Both the position numbers and the translations under genes were made by a program. A DNA stretch of 64,000 nt from NCBI GenBank assembly GCA_001800315.1, contig MGVE01000016.1, positions 3,432 through 67,431 on the forward strand, given 5' to 3'. Below, in pieces: positions 2,486 through 49,000 of the stretch. How positions within the stretch are numbered: position 1 is the first letter of the stretch; every line of letters starts with the position of its first letter. The notes beneath the pieces are model-generated. The model saw nothing but the letters and a program-made list of their open reading frames with translations, did not search any database and was not told where the DNA came from. Source of the DNA: Elusimicrobia bacterium RIFOXYA2_FULL_47_53. Lineage in GTDB: Bacteria > Elusimicrobiota > Endomicrobiia > Endomicrobiales > XYA2-FULL-47-53.

Positions 2486-4444
2486 TTACTGGTTGGTTTT
2501 AGCCTGCGAGTCCTGCCATCTGGGCAGTGTAAAACAAAACTTGCTGCCTTTCTCAATTTTACTCTCTATCCAAACGCTGCCGCCGTGCAGTTCCAGGATT
2601 TTTTTCACTACCGCGAGGCCCAGCCCCGCTCCTTCCACCTGCCCCGTTTTGTATTCGTCTATCTGGTAGAATTTCTGAAATATTTTTTTATGCTCTTCGG
2701 AAGGTATGCCGAGCCCGTTATCCGAAACCTGAAGCATAACGAAATTGTTGTCAGCCAGCCCTCCGTTTATATGAATTATCTTTTCGGGCTTGTCGTTAAA
2801 CTTAACCGCGTTTTCAACTATATTTTCAACAACCTCTATAATCTTAGCCGTGTCAATCATCAGATCCGGCAGTCGGGAAAGTTCCTCTCCGACTATAACA
2901 GTTGTTTTATTTTTATCCAAAAAAGCTCCAAGGCCGAGCAGGCTTGTGTCAACAACTTTCTTTATGCTTATCCTTTCAGGGGTTAATTCGGTATACTCTG
3001 ACTCCAAAAGCGTGAATCTTATCAGCTTATCAACGAGCAGGTTAAGCGTGTTGCCTTCCCTTTCTATGGTAGTCAGCGCCTGCCTTGTCAGCTTATCTAA
3101 ATCTTTTGCCTTTTCCAGCAGCAGAGACGAATAGCCGTTTATAGCCGTCAATGGCGTGCGAAGTTTGTGGGAAATAAGCGCCAGGAAATCAATCTTCTGC
3201 TTGCCCTCTTTCTTTTCTTCCGTAATGTCTCTTAAAACGAAAATATGGCCTATGACATTTTTATCCTGGCCGGCTATCTTAGTGGCCATTACACTTAAAA
3301 ACAGCGACTTTCCTTTTACCCTTGAAAGCTCAAAGTTTACCGAGCGGGCCGTATCGGAGTTTATGGTTTCCCACGGCAGGGAGGGGGCGTAATCCGGTAT
3401 CATTTCTATAAAGCTTCTGTCTAAACTGTCTGTTTCACTCAGGCCCAGAAGCTCCCTCGCGGAATTGTTCAGCCTCATCACATTGAATCCGGCATCCGTC
3501 ACGACAGCGCCGTCGGCCATGGCTGAAAAAGTCGCGTTGAGTTCCTCTTTCTCCTGCTCAAGGCTGTTGAAAAGATAAGTGTTTTCAATTGCTATGGCGG
3601 CCTCAACCGCGAAAATAGACAGCAAATTCAGATCCTGTTCCGAAAACACCGCCTCTCTTTCCACTCTCGCCAGGTTAATCACACCCAGGAGCCTGCCTTT
3701 TCTCATCAGAGGGGCAGTCAGCGCGGATTTAATATCCTCATATGGCTCCAGGCCCAAAAACCTCGGGTCATTTTTTACATCTCCCTGTATCACGACAGGT
3801 TTCAGCTCTTTTGCCGAATATCCGGCTATCCTCTCTCCTAAACTCAGCTTTTTGTTAATAACATCATCTTTGCGAGAGCCGATAGCTACCTTCACAGTCA
3901 GTTCGTTAGCCTTTGAGTCATACAGCATTATGGAGCCGCTGTCGGCGCTCAATGTGTCGCTGGATAGTTTAAGAATAAGGTTTAAAAGCTCGTCAAGCCC
4001 CATTATGGAGCTTATAGCCTTGCTGACCTCGTAGAGGTTAACCAGCTGTTTTAATTCGCTGATCTCGGCCGAAAGCCTTTGCTTCTCAAAACAACGCTTA
4101 ACTATGAGGTCCAGCTCGGTAATATCAAATGTTTTGGGAACATAATCATAGGCGCCGAGCTTCATGGCCTGCACCGCGTTGGCAATAGTGCCGTGAGCCG
4201 TGATCATAATGACATCGGTCTTAGAGTAATTGTCCTTAATATGCTTAAGAACAGCGAGGCCGTCCATCTCGGGGAGTTTCAGGTCGGTTATGACTATTTC
4301 ACACGGGTTAGCCTTTAATACTTCTATCCCGCCTTCACCGCTGTCGGCGGAAAAAACTTCGTAGCCTTCGGATTTGAACAATTCCACGCAGGCTTTTCTT
4401 ATGTATTCGTCGTCGTCAATTACAAGTATGCTTTTCTTTTCCAT
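2486..4444 (-). CDS. hybrid sensor histidine kinase (REC-GAF-PAS-HisKA-HATPase)
   Basis: Receiver motif ILVIDDD...TDLKLPEMDG. GAF-like and PAS-like middle region. H-box ISHKLRTPL. ATPase boxes ENAVKF, DNGLGI, GAGLGLAV. Confidence 0.85.
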   Translation of the reverse strand: MEKKSILVIDDDEYIRKACVELFKSEGYEVFSADSGEGGIEVLKANPCEIVITDLKLPEMDGLAVLKHIKDNYSKTDVIMITAHGTIANAVQAMKLGAYDYVPKTFDITELDLIVKRCFEKQRLSAEISELKQLVNLYEVSKAISSIMGLDELLNLILKLSSDTLSADSGSIMLYDSKANELTVKVAIGSRKDDVINKKLSLGERIAGYSAKELKPVVIQGDVKNDPRFLGLEPYEDIKSALTAPLMRKGRLLGVINLARVEREAVFSEQDLNLLSIFAVEAAIAIENTYLFNSLEQEKEELNATFSAMADGAVVTDAGFNVMRLNNSARELLGLSETDSLDRSFIEMIPDYAPSLPWETINSDTARSVNFELSRVKGKSLFLSVMATKIAGQDKNVIGHIFVLRDITEEKKEGKQKIDFLALISHKLRTPLTAINGYSSLLLEKAKDLDKLTRQALTTIEREGNTLNLLVDKLIRFTLLESEYTELTPERISIKKVVDTSLLGLGAFLDKNKTTVIVGEELSRLPDLMIDTAKIIEVVENIVENAVKFNDKPEKIIHINGGLADNNFVMLQVSDNGLGIPSEEHKKIFQKFYQIDEYKTGQVEGAGLGLAVVKKILELHGGSVWIESKIEKGSKFCFTLPRWQDSQAKTNQ

Positions 4445-4452
4445 AGTGAGGT

Positions 4453-5874
4453 TTACGCGGGGGGGAGGCTGAAAGTAAATTTGCTTCCTTTTCCAAGTTC
4501 GCTTTCAACCGAGACCCTGCCGCCCATTGATTCCATAATTCCTTTCACGATTGCGAGGCCAAGACCGGTGCCCTTTGGCTTTGGGTTCTTGCCCTGGGTG
4601 CCGATTATCTGCTCAAATTTATCAAATATTTTGTCCAGTTTATCGGAAGGTATTCCTATGCCGCTGTCGCGCACCGAAACAAATATGAGTTTCTGCTTTT
4701 CGTCGTAACCGGCGCCCACGGAAATCGCCCCTTCCTGCGGTGTGAACTTTACGGCGTTGCTTAGAAGGTTAATAAGCACCTGCCTCGTCCTGTCCGGGTC
4801 CCCTAATGCAGGTGGAAGTTTTTCCGGCGCCTCTGAAGTAAATACAATATGCTTTTCGTCAAATTGGGGTTTAAACAACTGAATAGTTTCAGTAATGACG
4901 CCGAGGAGATCCAGCGTCTGGAGCGATACTTCCATCTTTCCGCGCTCTATCTTCGCCACATCCAGAAGGTCGTCAATAAAACGGCTGAGGCGCAGGGCGC
5001 AGTTTTTCATTATTTCAAGGTATTCCTTCTGCTTGTCGTTAATGGCTCCGGCCGTGCCTTTAAAAAACAGGTCTATGTAGAGCTTAAGGGAAAGCAGAGG
5101 GGACCGCAGTTCGTGGGTTACGCTTGATACAAAATCGCTCTTCATCTGGTCAAGCTCTTTAAGCTTTTCGCTCATCTTGTTAAATTCCGCGGCCAGATCT
5201 CCCAGTTCATCTTTGGTTTCAACGGATATTTTGTGGTCCAGCTTGCCCTGCCCGATTATACCGGCCCCCTGGGCCAGAATTTTTATAGGTTTCGTCATCA
5301 TGGCGGTCAACACAAAAGCGCCCAGAAGCCCGCAGAGCAGAGCCGCCGCAGACACAAGCATGATTCTTTTGCGCGCTCCGGATAAGGCGTCTTCAACTTC
5401 TTTATTAATCAATTCCTGATAAAACCCCAGCCTTACGGTTCCCTGACGGTCCTCACTGACCACGACCGGCATGGACAAATCAAGCAGATCCCGGCCGTCG
5501 CCGCCCTTGTATTTAATGACAGTATAATCCGAAGCCGCGAAGGCCTTTTTACTTACCTCGTCGCCCGGGACGGCTCCCAGAAGGTTGATATCGGTATGCG
5601 CCAGGATCCTGCCCGTACCGTCGGTGACCATGGCGTAGGCGAGCCCCTTTGTATTCTTAATTAGTTTCAGGTAATTGAGAAGAATTATCTCATCTTTGAC
5701 AATCAAAGATTCCTTGGCGGCCTGAGCCAGGCTTTTGACCATTCCGGCCCTGCTGTTTTCAAACTCTCTTACCAGAAAGCGGCTCTCGGAAATTATGAAC
5801 GAAACGCTCACTCCCGAAATAATGATAATTACAAGAAGACTGATAAGCAGGCTGAATTTAGTTTTTAATCTCAT
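4453..5874 (-). CDS. membrane sensor histidine kinase (2 TM + periplasmic sensor, HAMP, HisKA, HATPase)
   Basis: N-terminal TM and a second TM before a HAMP-like DELGDLAAEFNKM. H-box VTHELRSPL. SNAVKFT, DSGIGI, GTGLGLAI. There is an 8-nt gap to the downstream kinase. Confidence 0.85.
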   Translation of the reverse strand: MRLKTKFSLLISLLVIIIISGVSVSFIISESRFLVREFENSRAGMVKSLAQAAKESLIVKDEIILLNYLKLIKNTKGLAYAMVTDGTGRILAHTDINLLGAVPGDEVSKKAFAASDYTVIKYKGGDGRDLLDLSMPVVVSEDRQGTVRLGFYQELINKEVEDALSGARKRIMLVSAAALLCGLLGAFVLTAMMTKPIKILAQGAGIIGQGKLDHKISVETKDELGDLAAEFNKMSEKLKELDQMKSDFVSSVTHELRSPLLSLKLYIDLFFKGTAGAINDKQKEYLEIMKNCALRLSRFIDDLLDVAKIERGKMEVSLQTLDLLGVITETIQLFKPQFDEKHIVFTSEAPEKLPPALGDPDRTRQVLINLLSNAVKFTPQEGAISVGAGYDEKQKLIFVSVRDSGIGIPSDKLDKIFDKFEQIIGTQGKNPKPKGTGLGLAIVKGIMESMGGRVSVESELGKGSKFTFSLPPA

Positions 5875-5885
5875 CGTATGTCCCG

Positions 5886-7853
5886 TTATTTTCTGTTCTT
5901 TAACTCTTCTCTGGCCCTGTTTAAATTATTATTTATCTTCTCATTTTCCGGGTCAAGGTCGGATGCCTTCTGCCAGTTCCTTATGGCATCCTGCAGGTTG
6001 CCTGACTCATAGGCCTTTAAGCCTTCTCTGTTGAAGGTTTCGGCCTCGGTTTTCCGCATTGCCTCATATTCAATCCTGGCCTTATTCAGGCTTTCCGAAA
6101 TAGAAGAATTCCCGGGATCAAGCTTTGCCGCCTCGGCAAGAAACTTTACGGCTGAATTATAATCTTTTTCCTGGTAAGATTTCATGCCCCTGTCCGCGTA
6201 CTCCTGAGCCATCATCTTTCTTGTTTCTTTTAAGTATTTTTCAGCCTCGGCCCGGCCGGGAATAAGTTTTAGAGAGTATTCAAACTGGGCAACGGCCGCT
6301 TCCCAGATGCCTTTTTTATATAACTCCTGGCCTTTCTTGTAGGCCGCGTCGGACAGTTTCGTCAACTCGGCCAGTTCTTCTCTCTTTTTCTTTTCAGCGA
6401 GTTTCTCAAGCTCGGCTTTCGCCAGCTCAATATTCTCGCGCGCCGGTTTGTGCGCCGGATCCATCAAAAGAAGTTTTTCCCAGAGTGAAATCGCGTCGTG
6501 ATACTGGCCCTGCCTGAAGAAATCCTGGCCCTGCCTGAATATGCTCTCGGCTCTAAGGGACTTCTGCCTGCCAAGGGCCGCGTCTAATTTAGGCGCATAG
6601 GCCGCCACGGAGGCGTCGGCCGGGAAAAGCTGAACCATGCTGTCGTAAAGCTCTTTTGCCTCGGAAAGCCTGGCGTCATTTATATACGCCTCAAGCAGGG
6701 TAAAATATTTATCAACTTTAACGGAACTTATACCGGAGCGGATTAAAGCTGAAATGGTTTTGGCTTCTTCATTAAGCGGATCAACGGAAAGGACATAATT
6801 TGCTTCAATGTTGGCGCTTATCAGATCCTTTTTCTGATAATACCTTACCGCTTTGGCCAGCCTCGCCGATAAATTTGAATCCACAAGCGCTTTTTCATGA
6901 TCTCTGCCAAAACGGTAATTAATGCCTATCCTGTGGGTATTGCCAAGAATTCCGTAAGGAGCGAAAGCGTAGTCAACCGAAATATACTCGTTGCCGAGCC
7001 CTATTCCGCCTACTAACCCGGGTTCAATATCGTACTGAGCTGTTTGTGACTTATACCTGTAGCCGGCGCGCAGGGAAATCCAATCCGTCAGCTTATAGTC
7101 AAGCCCGGCATTAAGAGACAGCGCCGCGTCCGCTGGCATATTGGCGTCTAATGAAAATGTCAGAGTGTCGTACAGAAAATTCTGTGCGAGCCCCAGTTTA
7201 TAATTTGAGGGGAGGGGATACTCTTCTTTAACGAACTTAACCTGAGTTCCCAGATTCTGCGCCGCTAAAGCAAGTTTTAACTCGTTGCCAATCCAGCCTG
7301 CGGCGTTATTTAATCCGGTTTTAAGGCCGTATATAAAACCAAGATCCGCGGCGTAAGCGACGGCTGATTCTCCGGCAAGGTTTTCGCTCAAATATTTAAT
7401 GTTCATGCCGCAATCAACTCCGTAGAACTTAGCTCCATAGGACAAAACCGCGGCCAAATCGGAAGCTTTCACTGTATTTTGAAGCCTTGCGCCGTAATTG
7501 TCATAAGCCTCCACATCGCCGGATGAGAGGTAATAAAGGCTTAAACCCGCGGTGCCGTGGTTTTTTATGGGGTGGGCATAGGAAGCAAACTGGTAGTTTA
7601 TTCCTTCAAACCAGCTTAGATGCATTAACGACACCTGGCGCGAGCGAAGCCGCGAAAGCCCCGCGGGGTTCCAATAAGGAGCGCTGGCGTCATCGGCCAC
7701 GGCTGAGAACGCTCCGCCTGAACCGAGAGCCTTTGCGCCCGCCTCAATCTTAAGAAAATTCATACCCGTGCTTCCCGCTGACCCGGCAAACAGCCTGGCG
7801 GGGAATAAAAGCAACATGGAAAGAATGATTTTATGCCATAAAATATTTTTCAT
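5886..7853 (-). CDS. PorV/PorQ-family barrel fused to a C-terminal TPR-repeat domain
   Basis: Signal peptide, MNFLKIEAGAKALGSGGAFSAV...YWNPAGLSRL. Barrel end VDYAFAPYGILGNTHRIGINYRF. About 330 aa of TPR-like repeats follow (e.g. GQYHDAISLWEKLLLMDPAH, GNLQDAIRNWQKASDLDPEN). Its start overlaps the upstream cargo stop by 4 nt. Confidence 0.75.
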   Translation of the reverse strand: MKNILWHKIILSMLLLFPARLFAGSAGSTGMNFLKIEAGAKALGSGGAFSAVADDASAPYWNPAGLSRLRSRQVSLMHLSWFEGINYQFASYAHPIKNHGTAGLSLYYLSSGDVEAYDNYGARLQNTVKASDLAAVLSYGAKFYGVDCGMNIKYLSENLAGESAVAYAADLGFIYGLKTGLNNAAGWIGNELKLALAAQNLGTQVKFVKEEYPLPSNYKLGLAQNFLYDTLTFSLDANMPADAALSLNAGLDYKLTDWISLRAGYRYKSQTAQYDIEPGLVGGIGLGNEYISVDYAFAPYGILGNTHRIGINYRFGRDHEKALVDSNLSARLAKAVRYYQKKDLISANIEANYVLSVDPLNEEAKTISALIRSGISSVKVDKYFTLLEAYINDARLSEAKELYDSMVQLFPADASVAAYAPKLDAALGRQKSLRAESIFRQGQDFFRQGQYHDAISLWEKLLLMDPAHKPARENIELAKAELEKLAEKKKREELAELTKLSDAAYKKGQELYKKGIWEAAVAQFEYSLKLIPGRAEAEKYLKETRKMMAQEYADRGMKSYQEKDYNSAVKFLAEAAKLDPGNSSISESLNKARIEYEAMRKTEAETFNREGLKAYESGNLQDAIRNWQKASDLDPENEKINNNLNRAREELKNRK

Positions 7854-10800
7854 TTGATTATTATGATTTTACCGGACTTATGCTCCCTGGCGTTTTCAAT
7901 ATAATAAACATACAACCCGCTCGCGACACTTTCTCCCGAACTGTTTTTTCCGTCCCAGACAAGCTCCTCTTTGCCGCCGCTGAAGTTGTAGTCAAGGGCC
8001 CGCACAAGCTCGCCCGAAACTGTATAAACGCGTATAGTCGCCTGAGAACTTAACCCGGTAAAGGTAATGCCTCCGCTTTCGGTACCGGTCTCATCCTTGC
8101 CGTCAAAGGGTTTCCATGGCACCGGATAAGCGTAAGCGCTGGATAAATCGGTATCGCTGTTGCCCGAGACAGCATAAATTGAAAAGTGGTTAACACGGGC
8201 CGTTACGGTATTTTTCACCGTATCAACTTCCGAATTTGGATTTCTCACCCAGAGTTTTTTTGTCTCGTCCAGCCCGTAAATACTCAGGGTATTTTCCTTT
8301 ACCAGCCTGCCGTTTGAAGTGGTTACGAAACCATCGCCGTTTTCAGCATAGGGGATAACGATTGAAACACTTTTCTGGAATTTATCGCCGGCCAGTGTTC
8401 CGGCGTAAGTTCCTTTGTACATCAGGAATTTTCTCACACCCGAGTTGACCGCTCCGGCATAGGGGCCTCTAAGGCCGATAGCTTTGCCGTCGGCGTCGGT
8501 AAGCAGGGTTCCAATAGCGGGACTGGTGTCTATAATTATGTAATAATCAAAATCAACCGCTCCAGGCACAATCGTGACTTTTGTAGCGGAATCTCCCGCC
8601 GTAAAAATATTTTCAGCCAGGCAGTCCACGACTGTTGTGAATTGCCAGATTTTTCCTGAGATGATTGCGTTTCCGTAAAGGTCTTTCGCGTCAGTGGATA
8701 CCGTCACGCGGTATTTATAACCCTTTTTCCAGAGAGCCGAAAAACTCAGCGTTTTATCTGAATACTCAACAGTGCCTGAGACAGGCTCATTAATATCAGC
8801 CCCGAGGTTATCTTTAACAGCTCTTACCGATATAGCGCTTTTTGCCGCGGCAGGATCCATATCGTCACTGAGGAAAGTAACCCTGGCAGGTTCTGACACG
8901 GCTATGCCTATGGCGTCTTCCGCGGGAGAAACAGTGCCCGAAAGAGCGGGCATATCAGTTATGGTAAACTCCCAGATCTTCGCGGCGGCCATGGCGTTGC
9001 CGTAAAGATCCTGCGCTCCGGTGGAGATTGTCACCTGATATTTGTAGCCCTTCTTCCAAAGCGCGGAAAATGTAAGCGTCTTTGAAGAGGTTGAATATTC
9101 AACGGTTCCGCCGGCCGCTTCGCTTATCGCGACCCCAGCGCTGTCCCGCACAGCTATTACGGTAATCGCCGCGACAACAGTGGCAGAGCTCATATCATCA
9201 TTCCAGAACACAGCTTTAACCGGTTCAGCAGGGCTTACTCCGGAAGAATTTTCAGAAGGGGAAACGGTGACTATTGCAGGAAGGTTCATCGTGGTAAATT
9301 CCCAGACTTTCGCGGCGGCCATGGCGTTGCCGTAAAGATCCTGCGCTCCGGTGGAGATTGTCACCTGATATTTGTAACCCTTTTTCCAAAGCGCGGAAAA
9401 TGTAAGCGTCTTTGAAGAGGTTGAATATTCAACGGTTCCGCCGGCCGCTTCGCTTATCGCGACCCCAGCGCTGTCCCGCACAGCTATTACGGTAATCGCC
9501 GCGACAACAGTGGCAGAGCTCATATCATCATTCCAGAACACAGCTTTAACCGGTTCAGCAGGGCTTACTCCGGAAGAATTTTCAGAAGGGGAAACGGTGA
9601 CTATTGCAGGAAGGTTCATCGTGGTAAATTCCCAGACTTTCGCGGCGGCCATGGCGTTGCCGTAAAGATCCTGCGCTCCGGTGGAGATTGTCACCTGATA
9701 TTTGTAACCCTTTTTCCAAAGCGCGGAAAATGTAAGCGTCTTTGAAGAGGTTGAATATTCAACGGTTCCGCCGGCCGCTTCGCTTATCGCGACCCCAGCG
9801 CTGTCCCGCACAGCCTTGACGGTAATCGCCGGCACCACGGTTGAAGAACTCATATATTCGCTGAATACCGCGCTGATAATATCATTTACACCGACATCCG
9901 CGGCATTTTCCGGCGGGGAAACTGAACCGGTAATGGCCGGATAGGTAGGGGCAACGGTGATGTTCTTGTAGGCGACATTGTTGTTTTCAAGCGTCTCGTT
10001 GATTATTCCGCCCGGATAATCAACCGTCACATAAATATCGGTGCTTCCGTTAACCGCGGCCCACTGAAATGTCTCGGACCTGCTGCTGCCCGCGGGTATT
10101 GGCGTCTGGTAAACCGTTGAGCCAATCAACAATCCGCCAGAATCGGGATTGCCGGCATAAAAACCCACAAAGGTTGATGTGCTTTTGAATGCTTTGAAGA
10201 AAACATTCCATTTTCCTGGTATCGCCGCAATACTGCTCCATGTTGAACCAAGATCAGTGCTTCCGGCCAAACAATCTAATGTTGTTCCGGAATCAAGCCA
10301 CAACTGATATCCATTTGCTTTGTCTGATAAATTATAGGCACAAATCCAATAGGTAGTGCCGGAAACCAGGTAGGCAGCCGTGTCAAACTCAAAATCCTGC
10401 CAGCCGAATGAAGTAAATGTGCTGACTACCGCGGTATAAGCCAACTTATCATAACTTTGAAGGCTGGGGCGAATAAAAGAGCTTGCCTCGGTGCGTCGTA
10501 TTTCAACACCCATGGCATCTGAAGTTTCTCCAATGTTATTTATTAAAAGTGAAACCTTTCCCAAGTACATATTCTCCGCGGGGATAAAATACTGACCCCA
10601 GGAAATAGTACTGCAAACTGAAGTATAATCGCTTGAAACACCAACCATATAATCATGCTTGCCAAAAGGAATTTCGTAGGAATACAGGCCGCCGTTATTT
10701 TTGATTACGGCGCTTATGGAAATATTTTCGCTGGGTTCCGGGGTATTATTGCTGAAGGTTATATCGGTACCGGACACAGAAAGGTCGGGAGACGCGGCGT

Positions 10801-10870
10801 AAACGGGCGCAATTAGCGAGAGCGCGGTCACTAAAATAACGGGGATTTGTTTTCGCAATAGTAAAATCAT
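7850..10870 (-). CDS. 1006-aa secreted surface protein with four SbsA/Big_5-like Ig repeats and a T9SS-type C-terminal domain
   Basis: Signal peptide ...APVYAAS. The 110-aa Ig-like units each end ...GYKYQVTISTGAQDLYGNAM...WEFTT. C-terminus ITFTGLSSQATIRVYTVSGELV...LVWDGKN..G..VASGLYVYYI...GKIIIIK. Confidence 0.8.
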   Translation of the reverse strand: MILLLRKQIPVILVTALSLIAPVYAASPDLSVSGTDITFSNNTPEPSENISISAVIKNNGGLYSYEIPFGKHDYMVGVSSDYTSVCSTISWGQYFIPAENMYLGKVSLLINNIGETSDAMGVEIRRTEASSFIRPSLQSYDKLAYTAVVSTFTSFGWQDFEFDTAAYLVSGTTYWICAYNLSDKANGYQLWLDSGTTLDCLAGSTDLGSTWSSIAAIPGKWNVFFKAFKSTSTFVGFYAGNPDSGGLLIGSTVYQTPIPAGSSRSETFQWAAVNGSTDIYVTVDYPGGIINETLENNNVAYKNITVAPTYPAITGSVSPPENAADVGVNDIISAVFSEYMSSSTVVPAITVKAVRDSAGVAISEAAGGTVEYSTSSKTLTFSALWKKGYKYQVTISTGAQDLYGNAMAAAKVWEFTTMNLPAIVTVSPSENSSGVSPAEPVKAVFWNDDMSSATVVAAITVIAVRDSAGVAISEAAGGTVEYSTSSKTLTFSALWKKGYKYQVTISTGAQDLYGNAMAAAKVWEFTTMNLPAIVTVSPSENSSGVSPAEPVKAVFWNDDMSSATVVAAITVIAVRDSAGVAISEAAGGTVEYSTSSKTLTFSALWKKGYKYQVTISTGAQDLYGNAMAAAKIWEFTITDMPALSGTVSPAEDAIGIAVSEPARVTFLSDDMDPAAAKSAISVRAVKDNLGADINEPVSGTVEYSDKTLSFSALWKKGYKYRVTVSTDAKDLYGNAIISGKIWQFTTVVDCLAENIFTAGDSATKVTIVPGAVDFDYYIIIDTSPAIGTLLTDADGKAIGLRGPYAGAVNSGVRKFLMYKGTYAGTLAGDKFQKSVSIVIPYAENGDGFVTTSNGRLVKENTLSIYGLDETKKLWVRNPNSEVDTVKNTVTARVNHFSIYAVSGNSDTDLSSAYAYPVPWKPFDGKDETGTESGGITFTGLSSQATIRVYTVSGELVRALDYNFSGGKEELVWDGKNSSGESVASGLYVYYIENAREHKSGKIIIIK
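8960..9815 (-). repeat. near-identical 330-bp tandem repeat (about 2.6 copies) inside the surface-protein CDS
   Basis: The string cgcggcggccatggcgttgccgtaaagatcctgcgctccggtggagattgtcacctgatatttgta recurs at 8981, 9311 and 9641, a period of 330 bp (110 codons). Copies 2 and 3 look essentially identical by eye over hundreds of bases. Confidence 0.9.
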
Positions 10871-10961
10871 CGGTTTTATTATATAATATTTTAATAAAAA
10901 TAGCAGAAATATTTAATAAAAGTATTTGTTTTTTAACCGTTAAAACCCGATAAAATAGCCA

Positions 10962-10990
10962 TTGACAAAGCGGCGGATACCTGCTATTAA
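10962..10990 (+). promoter_or_regulatory. candidate sigma70-type promoter for the riboswitch-led transcript
   Basis: TTGACA (10962-10967), a 17-nt spacer, then TATTAA (10985-10990) in the divergent intergenic region. Confidence 0.4.
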
Positions 10991-11065
10991 TATAGCGGAA
11001 GAGGAAATGAGTATTCTTTGAAATTTGAGTTTTCAAATTGAGTCAAATTGCAGGTTTGTCTTAAG

Positions 11066-11160
11066 TTTCGTGCGATAAAGGCAAATTCCGGCGAAAGCCG
11101 GAAGACGCAAAACCACGGGGCTTCTTGCCGACAACGGCACAGCCAGCCGGGTTACCGAAC
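11066..11160 (+). promoter_or_regulatory. probable c-di-GMP-I (GEMM-I) riboswitch aptamer
   Basis: GGCAAA + UUCCGGC-GAAA-GCCGGAA (a perfect 7-bp stem with a GNRA tetraloop) + GACGCAAAACC + a second hairpin (GGCU..UGCCG-ACAA-CGGCA..AGCC) + AGCCGGGUUACCGA. This has the same order and nearly the same conserved blocks as the V. cholerae Vc2 aptamer (GGCAAACC..GAAA..GGGACGCAAAGCC...GCGGGGUUACCGA). It lies in the 5-prime leader of the CDS starting at 11218. Confidence 0.65.
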
Positions 11161-11186
11161 AACAATGCAGTAGTCCATACATTGTT

Positions 11187-11214
11187 GCTCAGACTGTCTA
11201 AACGGCAGGTGAGC
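11187..11214 (+). promoter_or_regulatory. hairpin that can sequester the Shine-Dalgarno sequence (possible riboswitch expression platform)
   Basis: GCUCA-GA-CUGUC [UAAAC] GGCAG-G-UGAGC. The 3-prime arm contains AGGUGAG (11207-11213), 4 nt before the ATG at 11218. Confidence 0.4.
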
Positions 11215-11217
11215 GAA

Positions 11218-12717
11218 ATGGACACAAAAAAAGCGTTATCATTAGTTTTCTCGGTGGCTTTCAGCTTAGGGTTATTCGTTTCAGGCGCCCTTTCTGAAGT
11301 CATCATTATTATTGAACCCGATCCCGAGCCTATCATTGATCCTATAACCCCTCCGACCGAACCGCCCGTAGTAGAGCCTCCAGCTCCGCCCCAGCCTCTG
11401 GGAGCAGATATTAATGTTGACCCTAATGTAATTAACCTCAAGAGCAACAGAAACTATATAACCGCCTACATTGAACTCGCCTCTGATATTTCAGCCGCTG
11501 AAATCAAAGTATCATCCGTAAAAGTAACAACCGTCAACGGAACCGCGATAACTCCGGTAAGCGCTCTGCTTTCGCCCACGGCTATCGGCGATGAAAACGC
11601 GAATTCTATCCCTGATCTTATGGTTAAATTCAACTATGACGAACTAAAACCATATTTCTCGGAAGGCCCGCTGACAATCTCCATAAGCGGCGAGCTGAAC
11701 AACGGCACAGCCTTCAGCGGGGAAAATACTGTAAAAGCCACTTATCATGAAAGCAACGGAAATTCCAATCAGCAAACCGTAAATACTCAGTCAGCGGTAA
11801 AAACTGAAAAAAACTTCAAATTCACGCTTGGCAACAATGTCCCTGCCGGAGCGTATGTAAGAAAGGCTCTGGTCTGGGAGCAGAAACTCCCTAAACTGGA
11901 GGCTCAAAAAGAGCTATGGTGGTACAAGGCTGAGAAAAACTGGCAGGCTATTCTTGGACATCTGTCCAATGAGAGCTATTCTAATGTCCTGCGAGGCACT
12001 GGCTACGAGTGGGATGTGATAAACGAGCTCAACGAGAACCGCACATTAGGCCTAAACGAAGTGGTCGTCAGGCTGGACAACGAGAGAAAGAACACTTATC
12101 CCGTTCTCGTGCTTGTCTGCGATACGCCGTCTCAGGACGCGGAAGAACGGATGACAGCGTCAATGTATGGTTTAAATCCAATCGGTGAAAAAGCCAAATT
12201 CGTAAAGAAAGGATCTAACCCCGACAAAACAATAACGCTGTATTACAATGAGAGCGATCTGCGCGGGGAAGCTGAAAGCGACCTTAAAATATATTACTGG
12301 AGTGAAGCCGTAAATGAGTGGCAGGTCGCCCCGGACTGCACTATTGACTATGCTGACAACAGCATCAGCTGTCAGAGCGATGTCAGCACCTTTTACCGGA
12401 TTATGGCCGTAAAACCCGCGCCGGCGCAACCCGAGGAGGCGGCTCCGGCCGCTCCCAATACCCTTAAACAGAACTATCCCAATCCCTTCAATCCGGCCAC
12501 AACCATTGAGTACTCCGTTTCCCAGGACTGCCATGTGACTTTGAAGCTTTACAATGTCGCGGGAGAGCTTGTAGCGACAATAGTGGATGAATTCCAGTAC
12601 GCCGGCAGCCACTCGGTGTACTACGACGGGGGAGAGCGCCTCTCCCGCGGGATATACTTCTACCAGCTTATAGCCGGCAATTTTGTTGACACCAGAAGAA
12701 TGGCGGTTTTGAAATAA
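11218..12717 (+). CDS. secreted protein with a Pro-rich linker and a canonical T9SS type-A C-terminal sorting domain
   Basis: I chose the start at MDTKKALSLVFSVAFSLGLFVSGALS (signal peptide) rather than the track start at 11125, which lies inside the riboswitch. C-terminus LKQNYPNPFNPATTIEYSV...VTLKLYNVAGELV...GIYFYQL...RRMAVLK. Confidence 0.8.
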   Translation: MDTKKALSLVFSVAFSLGLFVSGALSEVIIIIEPDPEPIIDPITPPTEPPVVEPPAPPQPLGADINVDPNVINLKSNRNYITAYIELASDISAAEIKVSSVKVTTVNGTAITPVSALLSPTAIGDENANSIPDLMVKFNYDELKPYFSEGPLTISISGELNNGTAFSGENTVKATYHESNGNSNQQTVNTQSAVKTEKNFKFTLGNNVPAGAYVRKALVWEQKLPKLEAQKELWWYKAEKNWQAILGHLSNESYSNVLRGTGYEWDVINELNENRTLGLNEVVVRLDNERKNTYPVLVLVCDTPSQDAEERMTASMYGLNPIGEKAKFVKKGSNPDKTITLYYNESDLRGEAESDLKIYYWSEAVNEWQVAPDCTIDYADNSISCQSDVSTFYRIMAVKPAPAQPEEAAPAAPNTLKQNYPNPFNPATTIEYSVSQDCHVTLKLYNVAGELVATIVDEFQYAGSHSVYYDGGERLSRGIYFYQLIAGNFVDTRRMAVLK

Positions 12718-12739
12718 TGCCGGCGTTCTGCTGTTTCGT

Positions 12740-12786
12740 AAACCTCTTAATTATTTAAAATTCTTTTGAGAGGTTTAATTTTTTTT
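12740..12786 (+). terminator. possible intrinsic terminator or attenuator between cargo and PorV gene
   Basis: AAACCUCU (12740-12747) pairs with AGAGGUUU (12769-12776), followed by a U8 tract. The loop is long (21 nt), so confidence is moderate. Confidence 0.4.
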
Positions 12787-12800
12787 GTATAATCTAAAAC

Positions 12801-13727
12801 ATGAACCTAAAAATAATTCCTGCTCTGCTCGCTTTTGTATTTATCGCTTCAGGAGCCCATGCCGTAACCACCGGGGTTGATTTCCTCAAACTTGGCATCG
12901 GCGCGAGGGAAACCGGCATGGGGGAAGCCTCGGTCGCCAGCCACTCCGGCGTGGATTCCAGCTACTGGAACCCGGCCGGACTTTCCGATATAACTCAAAC
13001 TGAACTCAGCCTTATGCACAGCGACGCCATTATAGACGCGTCGCTTAATTTTGTCGGAGTGGCCGTCCCGTTAAAAAACGGCGATGTTATCTGCGTAAAC
13101 ACTATTGTCTATGTAATTAAACCCGTGCCCGTCACGGACGCGAGCGGCCAGTCCATGGGCGACCTGAACTGGCTTGACGGAGCCGCGGCAGTCTCGTACG
13201 CAAGAAATATTACTGACAGCATTTCGGCGGGCCTTAGCGCGAAAATAGTCCACAGAATGGAGAGCGACCCTATCTTTGGCAGAAGCGAGGGAAGCGCCTA
13301 CGCTTTTGACGCAGGCGCCATTTATAAAACTCATTACAAAGGATTAAGTGTCGGGTACGCGCTTTTAAACACCGGAACGGAACTGCAGATGACCGGCGAA
13401 GTTAAAAAAGATACTCTTCCTCAGACCTCACGGCTTGGATTAACCTACGAATACGAGCTTGACAAAAACCTTCATCTTGTGGGTTCATGGGATTTTCACA
13501 GAATACTGGATAACTCCTGGCACACCGGCGCGGGCGTTGAAATAAATATCCGAAACGAATTTTTTCTGCGCACCGGATTTTATGAGAAAGACGGCAGTAT
13601 AAGCGGCAATACTTTCGGTTTTGGATTTATGGTTAATCAGTTCCGGTTTGATTACAGCAGCATACCGGTAAGCGAAATGACAGGATATAACCGAAATAAC
13701 AAGTTTTCCTTAAGTGTATTTTTTTAA
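12801..13727 (+). CDS. PorV/PorQ-family outer-membrane beta-barrel
   Basis: Signal peptide ...SGAHA. VDFLKLGIGARETGMGEASVA...SYWNPAGLSDI. C-terminal FRFDYSSIP...NNKFSLSVFF. Confidence 0.75.
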   Translation: MNLKIIPALLAFVFIASGAHAVTTGVDFLKLGIGARETGMGEASVASHSGVDSSYWNPAGLSDITQTELSLMHSDAIIDASLNFVGVAVPLKNGDVICVNTIVYVIKPVPVTDASGQSMGDLNWLDGAAAVSYARNITDSISAGLSAKIVHRMESDPIFGRSEGSAYAFDAGAIYKTHYKGLSVGYALLNTGTELQMTGEVKKDTLPQTSRLGLTYEYELDKNLHLVGSWDFHRILDNSWHTGAGVEINIRNEFFLRTGFYEKDGSISGNTFGFGFMVNQFRFDYSSIPVSEMTGYNRNNKFSLSVFF

Positions 13728-13733
13728 TCCCTT

Positions 13734-13898
13734 ATGCCGTCTAAAAAATTGATCATGCTGGGAATGTTAACAGGTTCCGTCGCGGGTGGATATTTGCCAT
13801 CGCTTTTCGGTATAAGTTCATTCTCTTTTACTTCTCTTATCACAAGCGCCGTTGGAGCTGTTATAGGGATTTATATTGGCTACAGGCTCTCCAAATAA
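13734..13898 (+). CDS. small (54 aa) Gly-rich membrane peptide, hypothetical
   Basis: ATG 13734 to TAA 13896-13898, encoding MPSKKLIMLGMLTGSVAGGYLPSLFGISSFSFTSLITSAVGAVIGIYIGYRLSK. Two hydrophobic segments. It is below the ORF-track size cut-off. Confidence 0.35.
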   Translation: MPSKKLIMLGMLTGSVAGGYLPSLFGISSFSFTSLITSAVGAVIGIYIGYRLSK

Positions 13899-13910
13899 TA
13901 TAAGCTGGGT

Positions 13911-14055
13911 AAATTGAGTCTGTTGAATAAACCTGTTTCAGGCCGTCTTTGCGAGGAGTGAAACGACACGGCAATCTCGCGGTTTACGACGGAAAGTCAA
14001 GATTGCTTCTCTCCCTTCGGGAGATCGCAAAGACAGGGCTCAACCGACTCAAATT
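13911..14055 (+). repeat. structured ~145-bp intergenic repeat with terminal inverted repeats (copy A)
   Basis: The ends aaattgagtctgttga / tcaaccgactcaaatt are inverted. Nested internal stems: gtctttgcga/tcgcaaagac, gcaatct/agattgc, and tctccc-UUCG-gggaga. It is about 80-85 percent identical (by eye) to the reverse complement of 35691-35846. Confidence 0.8.
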
Positions 14056-14183
14056 AGAACCCTTACGCTGCGGCTTTTAAGGAAAGATCTTAAACACGGC
14101 GGGATTGGCAAGAAATCAGGCCCGGAAAATGCGATGTTACCTGATCTCCGGATTCACGGAAGAAATTTTTATGGAGGGCATAG

Positions 14184-14606
14184 ATGCTGAAATTTACTAA
14201 AGTAATTATGCTGGGTATTATTATGTTCATCGCCGCGTGCGCCGACAAGACTGCCAGAACCACAGTTCCTGAAAAAACACCCGAGATATCCATGCTCACC
14301 GCAGTGAATTTCAGAGAAGCTATAAAGAAAAACGATGCCAATAGCGTCCTTCTGGATATAAGAACTCCTGAGGAATATTCGCAGGGACATATCAAGGGAT
14401 CCCGGAATATTGATTTCTACTCCGCGGATTTCAAGGATCAGCTTTCAGTTTTGGACAAATCTAAAACATATCTGATTTACTGCCGTTCAGGAAACAGGAC
14501 AAGAGCGGCTACGGCAATCATGAGGGAACTTGGTTTTAACAAAATAATAGTCCTGGAAAACGGAATTATTGACTGGTCCGGTAACAATCTTCCGCTGGAA
14601 AAATAA
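14184..14606 (+). CDS. rhodanese-domain lipoprotein (sulfurtransferase-like)
   Basis: Lipobox-like IAAC. LLDIRTPEEYSQGHIKGSRNI, and active-site loop YCRSGNRT. Confidence 0.8.
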   Translation: MLKFTKVIMLGIIMFIAACADKTARTTVPEKTPEISMLTAVNFREAIKKNDANSVLLDIRTPEEYSQGHIKGSRNIDFYSADFKDQLSVLDKSKTYLIYCRSGNRTRAATAIMRELGFNKIIVLENGIIDWSGNNLPLEK

Positions 14607-23181: not shown

Positions 23182-23292
23182 AATTCACCGTATCAATCAA
23201 GCTTGTGACAAAGTTTGTAAAACACTTGTAAAATAACTAAGAATATCGCAGTATCTCAGTTGTTATGTTGTTTACAAATTCAGGGAGATAAA

Positions 23293-24849
23293 ATGACCTC
23301 GGTTAAGCCAAATCCAGAAAAGCGAAATCTGAGCAGAATTAAATGCGTTTTGCCCGTAAAATTAGTTGACATAAATTTGGTCCAGGAGGAATTTTTCGTT
23401 GAATGTGTCAACATAAGCAAGACTGGGATGTCAATAGTCAGCAATATGGACAACATATCAACCCCAATAGAGGTATTGCTTGACCCCTACAACACTATGC
23501 TTAAAAAAGCTGATACGCTCCAGGTATCAGCTGAAATCAAATGGGTAAAGAAATTCCATGACGGAAAAGCATTTTATTACGGGCTTACTTTTATTAACCT
23601 GTCACCCGAAAACAAGAATGATATTGATCGTTTTGTTGAATCGGTAGCCGACTTAGTAGCAAGCGCCCAATCGGGCAACGGTGTTTATGTTCCCAAAAAC
23701 AGCCAGCTCAATTATAACAAGGACTTTATAATTAATAAGCGCCTAAAATGGCTGTCAGAAAAAACAAATGTGGAATATAAAAACATTTCTAACTTTACGG
23801 TTGATACCGAGTCAATGAAAGGCAATATAGAAAACTGCATTGGGGCCGTGCAAGTCCCGCTCGCAGTCGCAGGCCCCATAAAAGTAAACGGACAATATGC
23901 TAAGGGAGACTTTTATATTCCTCTTTCTACTACCGAAGGCGCCCTCGCAATGACATATGACCTCGGTTGCAGGGTAATATATAAGGCTGGCGGCGCAAAC
24001 ACAAAGATAATTAAAGATGAAGTTCATATTTCGCCGGTATTTAAGCTTAACAGCATTGCTGAAGGCGATGAATTTATTGACTGGATAAATAACCATTTTG
24101 AACAGATTAAACAGCGTGCAGAAAGCACAACAAGGTACGGCAAGCTGTTGCGTACTGAATGTATAAAGATGGGCCTAAAGATAATTGTTAAATTCATTTA
24201 TTCAACTGGCGACGCCCAGGGATTAAATATGATTAATAAAGGGACCGATGCCTCATGTAAATATATAGTTGAACAGAAAAAAATTGAATATTACCACAGG
24301 GCTAACTACTCCGGAATCAAGAAACTCAACATGGACAATATATATAACGGCAACGGCAAGGCGGTTGTCGCTGATGTTACTATTCCAAAGAACATATTGC
24401 GTGCTTTGCGAGTTACACCCGAGGAAATGGTTGAATATTACAACACCTGCCTTTTAGCAAGTACCTATGCCGGCATGATTGGCATTAATGCCCACATAGC
24501 AAACGGGATCACGGCCATGTTTATCGCCTGCGGCCAGGATGTAGCGGATATTTCGGTTTCCAGCGTAGGTTTTATGTCCTACGAACTTACCAATAAGGGT
24601 GATTTATACGGAAGTCTTTACATACCAAACCTATTTGTTGGTACCGTAGGTGGAGGAACAAAATTGGGTGGTCAGCGTGAATGTCTTGACATGATGGGGT
24701 GCTCGGGGACCGGCAGTTCAAAAAAGTTTGCAGAGCTCGTCACGGCCACTGCATTAGCCGGCGAAATAGCTGTCGTCTCGGCACTTCTCAATAACAACTA
24801 TGTCCAAGCGCACGAAAAGTACGGTCGCGCAAAACGGTCAGTAATATAA
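23293..24849 (+). CDS. PilZ domain fused to a class-I-like HMG-CoA reductase catalytic domain
   Basis: I took the start at MTSVK, after RBS AGGGAGA. PilZ motifs: RNLSR (RxxxR) and, 25 aa later, NISKTG (N-x-S-x-x-G). HMGR blocks: ENCIGAVQVPLAVAGP, STTEGALAM, GDAQGLNMINKG, VGTVGGGT. Confidence 0.75.
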   Translation: MTSVKPNPEKRNLSRIKCVLPVKLVDINLVQEEFFVECVNISKTGMSIVSNMDNISTPIEVLLDPYNTMLKKADTLQVSAEIKWVKKFHDGKAFYYGLTFINLSPENKNDIDRFVESVADLVASAQSGNGVYVPKNSQLNYNKDFIINKRLKWLSEKTNVEYKNISNFTVDTESMKGNIENCIGAVQVPLAVAGPIKVNGQYAKGDFYIPLSTTEGALAMTYDLGCRVIYKAGGANTKIIKDEVHISPVFKLNSIAEGDEFIDWINNHFEQIKQRAESTTRYGKLLRTECIKMGLKIIVKFIYSTGDAQGLNMINKGTDASCKYIVEQKKIEYYHRANYSGIKKLNMDNIYNGNGKAVVADVTIPKNILRALRVTPEEMVEYYNTCLLASTYAGMIGINAHIANGITAMFIACGQDVADISVSSVGFMSYELTNKGDLYGSLYIPNLFVGTVGGGTKLGGQRECLDMMGCSGTGSSKKFAELVTATALAGEIAVVSALLNNNYVQAHEKYGRAKRSVI

Positions 24850-46032: not shown

Positions 46033-49000
46033 ATGAAAAACAAAAAGAAAATTAACTTAAATTCAAAAACTGAGGCTTTTCCGGTAGTTGGTATTGGCGG
46101 CTCGGCCGGTGGGCTTGAGGCGTTTCAGAAACTGCTGCGGAGCCTTCCTGCTAATCTCGGTATGAGTTATGTGTTTATAATGCATTTAGCTCCTGAGCAT
46201 AAAAGTATGCTGACCGAACTGTTAGCCAAAGAGACAAAAATGCCGGTTAATGAGGCAAAAAGCGGCATGAAATTGGAAGCTAACCATGTTTATGTAATAC
46301 CTCCCAATGTTAAAATGGTTTTGAATAGCGGCAGGTTATTGCTTACCCGGCTGAAAGTCAGCGACCTTAAACGCATGCCTGTAGACAATTTCTTTCAATC
46401 TCTTGCCAAAGAACTTAGCAGCAGAGCAATAGGCGTTATTTTGTCCGGGACTGCTACTGATGGAACGCTTGGAGCTGAAGGGATTAAAGCCGAGGGCGGG
46501 ATTATTTTCGCGCAAGACGAAGAAACGGCAAAATATTTCGGTATGCCGCAAAGCGCCATTGCCGCGGGCTGCGTGGATTTCGTGCTGTCACCCGATAATA
46601 TCGCGAGAGAACTCATTCGTATCGCTAAACATCCCTATATTTCTATCGGCAAGCCAGCCGCCCCGGAGGAGCCGATCATTGGTGAAACTGAAGGTTTTGC
46701 TGTCATTTTTGACTTGCTGCGTCAGTCACGGGGAGTTGATTTTACGCTCTACAAGGCTCCTACGGTCAAGAGGCGCATATCCCGCCGCATGGTTTTGCTG
46801 AGGCAGCATAATCTTAAAGACTACATAAAGGTTCTGCGGGACAATAACGCGGAATTGAACAATCTTTATGATGACCTCTTAATAAATGTCACAAAATTCT
46901 TCCGCGATGCCGCCGTATTCGGCGCGCTTAAAAAGAAAGTTTTAGCCGCGGTTATTAAAGAAAATAAAAAGAATCAGCTGATAAAAATATGGGTTCCGGG
47001 ATGCGCCGGCGGCGAGGAAGTATATTCTATCGCCATTTGCGTGGCGGAGGCTCTGGGGAACAAGATCGCGTCAATCCCTGTACAAATTTTCGGAAGCGAT
47101 ATCAGCGAAAAGAGCATTGATAAAGCCAGGCGCGGTTTGTATCCCAAGTCCATAGAAGCAGATATTACCCCGGAGCGTTTGAAGCGGTTTTTCACCAAAG
47201 ACGGAGATTCCTACAGGGTATCCAAACAGCTGCGCAGTATGTGTATTTTCTCAAGACAAAATGTCTTTAACGACCCGCCTTTCTCAAATTTAGACCTTAT
47301 CAGCTGCCGCAATCTTTTAATATACCTTCAGCCGGCCCTGCAGAGAAGCGTGTTTAATAAATTCCATTACGCTCTCCGGCCCGGCGGTTTTTTATTGCTT
47401 GGCAATTCAGAATCAGCGGCTGGTTATGCCGGTCTTTTTAAGGTTATGGACAGAAAACACAAGATATTCATAAAGAAATATACTCCCATGTCTCCAAAAC
47501 TTGAAATAGGCAGGCAGTATTATTTGCCGGAGAAATTAGAAATCAAAGAAAAGACAGGCCTTATGAAATCCAGAGAAACCGATATTGGAAGCCTTGTTGA
47601 ACAGGCGGTGCTTGAGCAGTACGCCGCGAGCGGCGTATTGCTTAACAGCGATATGGATGTAATCCAGTTTCGCGGGCATACCGGGCGCTATCTTGAATCA
47701 TCCGCGGGTAAACCAAGCCATAATATATTTAAATTAACCAGAGAAGGACTGGCTCTGCCATTGCGGGCCGCGATAAATAAAGCCAGAGACACAAAACGGG
47801 CCGTAAGCAAAGAAGCCGGCGATGTCTGGTACGGCGGGCGCAGGCTGAGCCTTAATGTTACGGTTATTCCCGTTAAATCCGGAGCCTTAAAGGAAGAATT
47901 TTACCTGGTTCTTTTTGACGAAAATTCCGGAGGGAATTCAGGTAAAAAAACCTCGCCGCTCGGAAAAAATGCCCCTAAAATCAAGCATATTAAAAATGAC
48001 GAACTTTTAAATCTGCGTAATGAACTTATGGAGACGAAAGAATATCTTCAAACAGTTATTGAAGAACATGAGAGCGCCAACGAAGAAGTAAAAACCGCGA
48101 ATGAGGAAATACTTTCAAGCAATGAAGAACTTCAAAGCACAAATGAAGAGCTTGAAACGGCAAAAGAAGAACTGCAGTCTTCAAATGAGGAATTGATCAC
48201 CACTAATGAGGAACTGCAGAACCGTAACAGAGAAGCCAATCTGCTCAATAATGACCTTGTAAACCTGCTTAGCAGTATCAATATGCCGGTAATAATGATG
48301 GATACGGGGCTTGTAATACGCAGGATAACACCGCAGGCTGAAAGAGCGCTAAATGTAGTTTCCGCGGATGTAGGAAGGGAAATAACAAAAATAAAGCTGA
48401 GCGTTGAAATCCCTGATCTGGAAAAGATTCTCATGGAAGTTATTGAGTCTCTTCATCCGAAAACTTTTGAAGTGCGGTCCGGGGAGGGAAACTGGTATTC
48501 GGCAAATATAAGGCCTTACAGAACCTTAGACAACCGGATTGATGGCGTTGTCGCTGTTTTTGTGGACATCACAGGGATAAAGAAGGCACAGGAAATCACG
48601 GAAGAAGCCCGTGATTACTCTGAAAATATTGTTGAGACTGTGCGTGAACCATTAATCGTAATGGACTCGGACTTAAATATAATATCAGCCAATAAATCAT
48701 ACTACATGGCGTTTAAAACAACAGCCGCGGAAACACAGGGGAGATTAGTTTATGACTTGCCCGGCAAACAGTGGGATATTCCGGCCCTGCGAAAGCTGCT
48801 GGAAGGGGTCTCCGCAAAAAATGAACCCTTTGATGGTTATAGAGTTGAACAGGATTTCGGTACTGCCGGCAAAAAGATTTTATTATTGAGCGCAAGGCAA
48901 ATTACCAGAAGGACAACTGGCAGGCATTTAATTCTAATGGCTGTGGAAGATGTTACCGTTACCAGCCATATGGAAAAAGAACTGATGAAAGTCCAGAAGC

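Follow-up and report, generated by a model that had tools for sequence, protein, structure and literature searches.

The window analysed here, a 64-kb stretch of DNA from an Elusimicrobia MAG of Rifle aquifer groundwater, contains a gene for a secreted protein with a type IX secretion system (T9SS) sorting tail, here called the cargo gene. A c-di-GMP-I aptamer stands in the 5′ untranslated region of this gene, and a gene for a PorV/PorQ-family barrel follows it. The features of the locus, all on the plus strand, are as follows.

10963–10991, plus strand: sigma-70-type promoter read from the sequence (−35 TTGACA 10963–10968, 17-nt spacer, −10 TATTAA 10986–10991)
10998–11070, plus strand: 5′ leader, about 70 nt long, from the inferred transcription start to the aptamer
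11071–11160, plus strand: c-di-GMP-I aptamer (RF03167 over the full span, RF01051 on 11075–11156)
11073–11074 with 11156–11157, plus strand: P1 of the aptamer, possibly also 11071–11072 with 11160–11161
11081–11108, plus strand: P2 of the aptamer, GAAA loop at 11093–11096
11111–11153, plus strand: P3 of the aptamer
G11080, A11109 and C11155, plus strand: predicted ligand-contact bases, from consensus alignment
C11106 and G11146, plus strand: inter-helix pair bases of the aptamer
11160–11187, plus strand: alternative hairpin H1, CAACAAUG (11160–11167) with CAUUGUUG (11180–11187), from energy evaluation
11170–11225, plus strand: sequestering hairpin in the MFE and centroid structures (11170–11171 with 11224–11225, 11173–11178 with 11218–11223, 11185–11191 with 11210–11216, 11194–11198 with 11204–11208)
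11218–12717, plus strand: putatively regulated cargo gene, 499 aa, from translation and three gene-call pipelines
12739–12787, plus strand: terminator-like element found by folding, a 12-bp AU-rich stem (12739–12750/12766–12777) with a 15-nt loop, then AA and U8 (12780–12787)
12766–12793, plus strand: promoter-like site TTGAGA-16 nt-TATAAT just before the PorV-like gene, by an 11/12 consensus match only
12801–13727, plus strand: PorV/PorQ-family outer-membrane beta-barrel gene, 308 aa, from NF033709

The JGI, ENA and NCBI calls all start the cargo gene at the ATG at 11218, and three homologues align with its product from Met1. A plus-strand ORF start at 11125 and a minus-strand ORF at 11061–11447 had been taken as probable artefacts in the original prediction, and the gene calls agree, the antisense ORF being called by none of the three. 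The protein has an N-terminal signal peptide, a proline-rich linker, a module at residues 69–172, a beta-rich middle and a sorting domain at residues 420–495. The module is a widespread one of about 100 aa and shows 45% identity with the C-terminal domain of a 'choice-of-anchor X domain-containing' protein from a cyanobacterium. The tail matches the T9SS type-A sorting model TIGR04183 (30.7 bits against a cut-off of 23) and falls slightly under the cut-off of Pfam PF18962 (26.2 bits against 27). An AlphaFold2 model of the cargo has a mean pLDDT of 45, and a profile search of the PDB with the cargo gave no match.

The downstream protein scores 155 bits against the PorV/PorQ family NF033709 (cut-off 90) and stays below the equivalog cut-offs for PorV (NF033710, 82 against 250) and PorQ (75.5 against 220). 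The earlier description as a cargo/PorV module holds, with a tail-bearing cargo next to a member of the PorV/PorQ family. Between the two genes lies the terminator-like element (−13.0 kcal/mol, z = −4.0, none of 200 shuffles as good), which the terminator scan missed since its loop exceeds 8 nt; a stem-loop with a U-rich tail, differing in sequence, sits at the same place after the cargo gene in the related contigs L208 and L209. Overlapping it is the promoter-like site, the best in 10700–14300. Because this hairpin with its U8 and the promoter-like site separate the PorV-like gene from the cargo gene, the earlier suggestion that the PorV partner might also be under c-di-GMP control appears doubtful; the gene is probably transcribed on its own, possible read-through aside, and outside the reach of the riboswitch.

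The promoter of the cargo gene was missed by the automated scan because its −10 element ends in A, and transcription from it would start at about 10998–11000. TTGACAAA, a 17-nt spacer and a TAnnAT-type −10 element stand at the matching place in L207, L208 and L209 and, judged by these motifs, all four loci have kept the promoter. The leader of about 70 nt is absent in L208 and L209, where the aptamer lies about 12 nt past the inferred transcription start. Within the leader of the window, GGUUUGUCU (11053–11061) is complementary to the aptamer core AGGCAAAUU (11079–11087), and the two are paired in the unconstrained MFE structure, a pairing that may have a role in switching, as considered below.

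A cmscan of the whole window against Rfam 15 gave two matches at the gathering threshold, one tRNA and one riboswitch. The riboswitch match, at 11071–11160 on the plus strand, belongs to clan CL00126 (c-di-GMP-I), and with an E-value of 5e-12, computed for 64 kb, both strands and 4227 families, it is far beyond chance. The nominal best family for the full span is RF03167 (c-di-GMP-I-GGC, 61.3 bits against a cut-off of 59), and clan competition conceals one further family of the clan that passes its own cut-off there. Once the P1 flanks are removed (11075–11156), RF01051 (c-di-GMP-I) is best, its 55.7 bits (E 4.4e-11) exceeding the gathering score of 35 by 20 bits. A permissive scan of 10900–11300 gave no match to c-di-GMP-II at E ≤ 10. 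The original prediction had called a GEMM-I element here and had named the RF01051 covariance model as the means of checking it, with c-di-GMP-II as the control; the call proves correct, given this score, the canonical contact bases and the aptamers found before all three full-length homologues of the gene. The conserved blocks also lie where they had been placed, with GGCAAA-UUCCGGC-GAAA-GCCGGAA-GACGCAAAACC at 11080–11114, then P3, and AGCCGGGUUACCGA at 11145–11158. Our own covariance model, R1, scores the aptamer at 76.8 bits, the window itself being part of the R1 training alignment. On the minus strand, the terminator scan flags 11086–11103, the reverse complement of the P2 hairpin together with the T-rich complement of AAAGGCAAA, a signal that most likely just reflects the sequence of the aptamer.

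The aptamer forms the three-way junction with P2 and P3, backed by covariation across 39 aligned aptamers (that of the window and 38 others): compensatory changes occur in 15 of the 21 predicted pairs, and all 18 pairs of P2 and P3 are standard in the window. Alignment with the RF01051 and RF03167 consensus lines and with the 38 other aptamers makes G11080, A11109 and C11155 the equivalents of G20, A47 and C92, in the Vc2 numbering of the crystal-structure papers, and the bases of the window match the RF01051 consensus GACGCAAA and UgCC. Because these three bases make up the canonical triplet, the predicted ligand is c-di-GMP, which would bind at the junction that they form; A47 of the Vc2 aptamer intercalates between the two guanines of the ligand in the crystal structures. 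P3 has the usual bulged A and AG bulge, and the G of the latter is the one that, in Vc2, pairs across to the cytosine of GACGC. P1 is weak, with 2 to 4 bp: two GC pairs and perhaps two more extending to C11160 and A11161. P2 has one base pair more than in 117 of the 120 aptamers sampled. The GNRA tetraloop of P2 is present, but the receptor position in P3 is noncanonical, with UUCU/CA in place of the usual CUAAG/UAUG tetraloop-receptor motif; L102 and L165 carry similar CUUC variants there. Given the weak P1, the longer P2 and this receptor, the affinity may be lower than in the model aptamers.

A search with the tail-less cargo protein identified only three full-length homologues (P0016–P0018), located in five metagenome contigs; L209, L210 and L211 all carry P0018, and their three aptamer matches are identical. 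The homologues are 28–29% identical to the cargo by BLASTP and 35–39% in a MAFFT alignment, and all three keep the sorting domain. A c-di-GMP-I aptamer lies directly upstream of every one of them (49–79 bits), and a PorV/PorQ-family gene lies downstream in L207, L208 and L209 (146–155 bits), so that L207, L208 and L209–L211 share with the window the order promoter, aptamer, tail-bearing cargo, stem-loop and PorV/PorQ-family gene. The L208 PorV-like protein has 46% identity with that of the window, and a hybrid histidine kinase encoded nearby in L208 has 50% identity with the window kinase at 2486–4444. As the aptamers stand upstream despite such identities in barrel and kinase, and only about 29% in the cargo, the riboswitch appears to have been kept with the cargo gene across deep divergence, and we regard this retention as the strongest argument that it is likely to be functional.

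The expression platform, by contrast, is not conserved. L208 and L209 use an intrinsic terminator, CCGGGUUGCC...GGCAAGCCGG followed by U6–7, whereas the window has no terminator and shows occlusion of the Shine–Dalgarno sequence (SD) and AUG instead, and L207 has a third design. In L208 and L209 (2836–2990 in each) the terminator has as its 5′ arm GAGCCGGGUUGCCGAAAA, which repeats the 3′ strand of the aptamer and fits the consensus better than the first copy does; in L208, cmscan used this repeat to align the aptamer. Such a layout resembles a strand-swap design, and since it can be read as ON or as OFF, these relatives do not decide in which direction the switch works.

Type IX secretion has been studied in the Fibrobacterota-Chlorobiota-Bacteroidota (FCB) group, and the Elusimicrobia lie outside it. 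A genome-contig search with the cargo protein returned sorting-tail matches only, in FCB-group and other genomes, and none of these 80 tail-bearing loci has an aptamer (best score 17.7 bits). Targets of the same kind as the cargo gene are common in our sample, where 70 other aptamers mostly precede genes for surface or secreted proteins, fn3, Big_2, PKD, transglutaminase and beta-helix domains being common downstream; the top families downstream of these 70 include no other Por_Secre_tail.

Immediately after the aptamer of the window, the sequestering hairpin pairs 20 bp in four segments with an energy of −21.3 kcal/mol (z = −3.09), and 1 of 200 shuffles is as good. The SD AGGUGA (11207–11212) and the AUG (11218–11220) are both paired within it, and the SD bases, with the exception of the bulged G11209, are unpaired with a probability of at most 0.07. 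An SD-pairing hairpin had been predicted at 11187–11214; it exists and pairs the SD, but its extent is larger and takes in the start codon as well. Neither the terminator scan nor folding showed a plus-strand terminator or a stem plus U-run in 11160–11217. Because there is no terminator between aptamer and gene, and because the hairpin buries both SD and AUG, control at the level of translation, as originally put forward, agrees with the sequence and is most likely, and we somewhat favour occlusion of the SD and AUG as its means. The leader is identical (100%) in eight public copies (the window, L001–L006 and L212), and with all eight alike the window's own expression platform offers no covariation.

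Among local structures, H1 alone competes with the sequestering hairpin: its 5′ arm abuts or overlaps the P1 3′ strand, and its loop and 3′ arm share bases with the sequestor's 5′ arms. By itself H1 has an energy of −6.9 kcal/mol; its formation removes the AUG helix and shortens the SD hairpin, for a total of −16.6 kcal/mol against −21.3 kcal/mol for the full sequestering hairpin. We suggest that H1 may serve as an anti-sequestor. P1, closed by the ligand, would take C11160 and A11161 from H1, and the loss of H1 would in turn favour the sequestering hairpin, a relay running from P1 through H1 to the sequestor. On this architecture we lean slightly towards c-di-GMP lowering translation. In a nearest-neighbour equilibrium model, the predicted pairing of the SD and AUG exceeds 90% with or without the aptamer enforced, with no change at either upon enforcing the aptamer fold, and as both are paired in the two modelled conditions the switch itself is not seen in silico.

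Three long-range duplexes may also compete, none of them decisive for the switch model: the leader at 11047–11059 with 11159–11171 (−9.0 kcal/mol), 11064–11078, which includes the P1 5′ strand, with 11182–11195 (−10.8 kcal/mol), and the P3 5′ strand at 11113–11130 with the SD region at 11203–11221 (−19.9 kcal/mol). Pairing of the leader with the aptamer core or with 11159–11171, and of the P1 5′ strand with 11182–11195, would point the same way as the H1 relay, with ligand leading to sequestration. The third duplex contains a stretch of the P3 5′ strand, GCUUCUUGCC (11120–11129), that is complementary to GGCAGGUGAGC (11204–11214) in the SD region, the −19.9 kcal/mol being reached with flanks. 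There is likewise a resemblance between the SD region and the P3 3′ strand, AACGGCA being common to both.

The nominal match to RF03167 bears on what the riboswitch senses, as it could place the element in the c-di-GMP-I-GGC variant class, with a ligand other than c-di-GMP. Variant classes of this kind were reportedly defined by Weinberg et al. in 2017, and the meaning of 'GGC' is taken here from the model consensus lines. RF03167 tops the clan on the full-length element (61.3 bits against a GA of 59), and its P1 geometry, AAAGGCAAA and CCACGG...AGCCGGG stem sequences are in common with the window. The two consensus lines differ, however, at one conserved position, where RF03167 has GACGCGAA, with G at the A47 position (model position 37), against GACGCAAA in RF01051; the window has A11109 in place of this defining G, and its match line to RF03167 is blank exactly there. 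Moreover, all 120 metagenome aptamers collected with a pattern permitting A or G at the A47 position have A, and RF03167 was nevertheless the best Rfam match for 14 of the 20 A-bearing aptamers scanned among L087–L138 (61–76 bits), so that such a match is uninformative on the binding site. The base before C92 is likewise polymorphic among ordinary members (78 G and 42 A in the 120). With P1 trimmed RF01051 wins, too, and we reject the GGC identity and find a different ligand on this ground hardly credible. Sensing of 3′,3′-cGAMP, of the GEMM-Ib type, or promiscuity among cyclic dinucleotides would use the same fold, in which specificity can shift with few changes, and the atypical P2 and P3 leave it some room. 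Yet cGAMP-selective members are said, in 2015 reports of Kellenberger et al. and Nelson et al., to have A at the G20 position, and by this criterion, Rfam having no separate GEMM-Ib family, the G11080 of the window makes cGAMP a very unlikely ligand. The predicted ligand thus stays c-di-GMP.

A true aptamer could also act through transcription, by Rho-dependent termination or by RNA stability tied to ribosome loading, and both the clear intrinsic terminator after the aptamer in L208 and L209 and the thermodynamic model, with no ligand-dependent change at the SD, could be read in this way. We consider it unlikely, given that no stem plus U-run occurs between 11160 and 11217 and that the one strong structure in this stretch lies over the SD and AUG. 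The same modelled lack of coupling between aptamer and SD, together with the weak P1, the unusual P2 length and the want of a canonical tetraloop receptor, could alternatively indicate a decayed aptamer that no longer switches, the hairpin over SD and AUG merely setting a low constitutive level of translation. Decay is hard to reconcile with a core in which the ligand contacts, the GAAA loop, and C11106 and G11146 are all intact, with a score 20 bits above the RF01051 cut-off, and with an aptamer kept before every known full-length homologue of the gene, and we hold it to be quite improbable. We conclude with good confidence that the element is a canonical c-di-GMP-I (GEMM-I) riboswitch in the approximately 220-nt 5′ untranslated region of a secreted-protein gene, most likely controlling translation initiation.

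Elsewhere in the window, a PilZ domain (23260–24849, plus strand, probable start ATG 23293; 40.4 bits) has intact RxxxR and NxSxxG motifs and is fused N-terminally to HMG-CoA reductase. This domain indicates that the organism has c-di-GMP signalling with at least one receptor, and the fusion suggests c-di-GMP control of an isoprenoid-pathway enzyme. It is the only c-di-GMP protein component seen in the window: a GGDEF/EAL motif search of all window ORFs found no GGDEF domain and one weak EAL-like string. A Pfam scan of 29 of the 38 window ORFs of at least 180 aa showed none of the T9SS core components PorK/L/M/N, Sov/SprA and PorU. A second cargo/barrel pair lies on the minus strand at 5886–10870. 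Its cargo is a 1006-aa Big_5/CARDB protein whose tail is of the FlgD_ig/sorting type, and its barrel, of 655 aa, belongs to the PorV/PorQ family and is fused to TPR repeats; two histidine kinases (2486–5874) follow the pair, and no riboswitch was found before it. Among several hybrid kinases, that at 46033–50097 (plus strand) is a 1354-aa fusion of CheB methylesterase, CheR methyltransferase, PAS, histidine kinase and receiver domains.

The riboswitch is a further member of a well-known class in a host from an under-studied phylum, the Elusimicrobia, and it is well supported as a c-di-GMP-I riboswitch there. We give about an even chance to the wider proposal that an Elusimicrobia cargo with a T9SS-type tail, standing beside its own PorV/PorQ-like barrel gene, has its output gated by a c-di-GMP riboswitch, in a module with at least three platforms. 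If true, this would be the first direct link between c-di-GMP sensing by a riboswitch and T9SS-type secretion, and the aptamer, the tail-bearing cargo and the PorV/PorQ-like barrel would form a small conserved module placed in the c-di-GMP regulon. Our literature search found no paper naming both a c-di-GMP riboswitch and type IX secretion, and the link may therefore be undescribed. There is also a lesson for annotation, as clan competition in Rfam tags many ordinary c-di-GMP-I aptamers as RF03167 (14 of 20 here), and ligand annotation can be misled.

Compared with translational riboswitches that occlude the SD, the window has the same hairpin over SD and AUG right after the aptamer, and an alternative hairpin that abuts the P1 3′ strand; it differs in that P1 and the alternative hairpin overlap by 2 nt only, and in that the modelled energies favour sequestration in both conditions. 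With RF01051 and its Vc2 member from Vibrio cholerae it shares the three-helix junction, the blocks AAAGGCAAA, GACGCAAA and GGGUUACCGA, the GAAA loop of P2, the equivalents of G20, A47 and C92, and a place in the 5′ untranslated region of a gene for a secreted or surface protein. It departs from most other members in the extra base pair of P2 and in the UUCU/CA internal loop at the receptor position. The known working of the c-di-GMP-I class is unchanged by these findings; what sets this member apart is its host phylum, the Elusimicrobia, and a target that carries a T9SS-type sorting tail.
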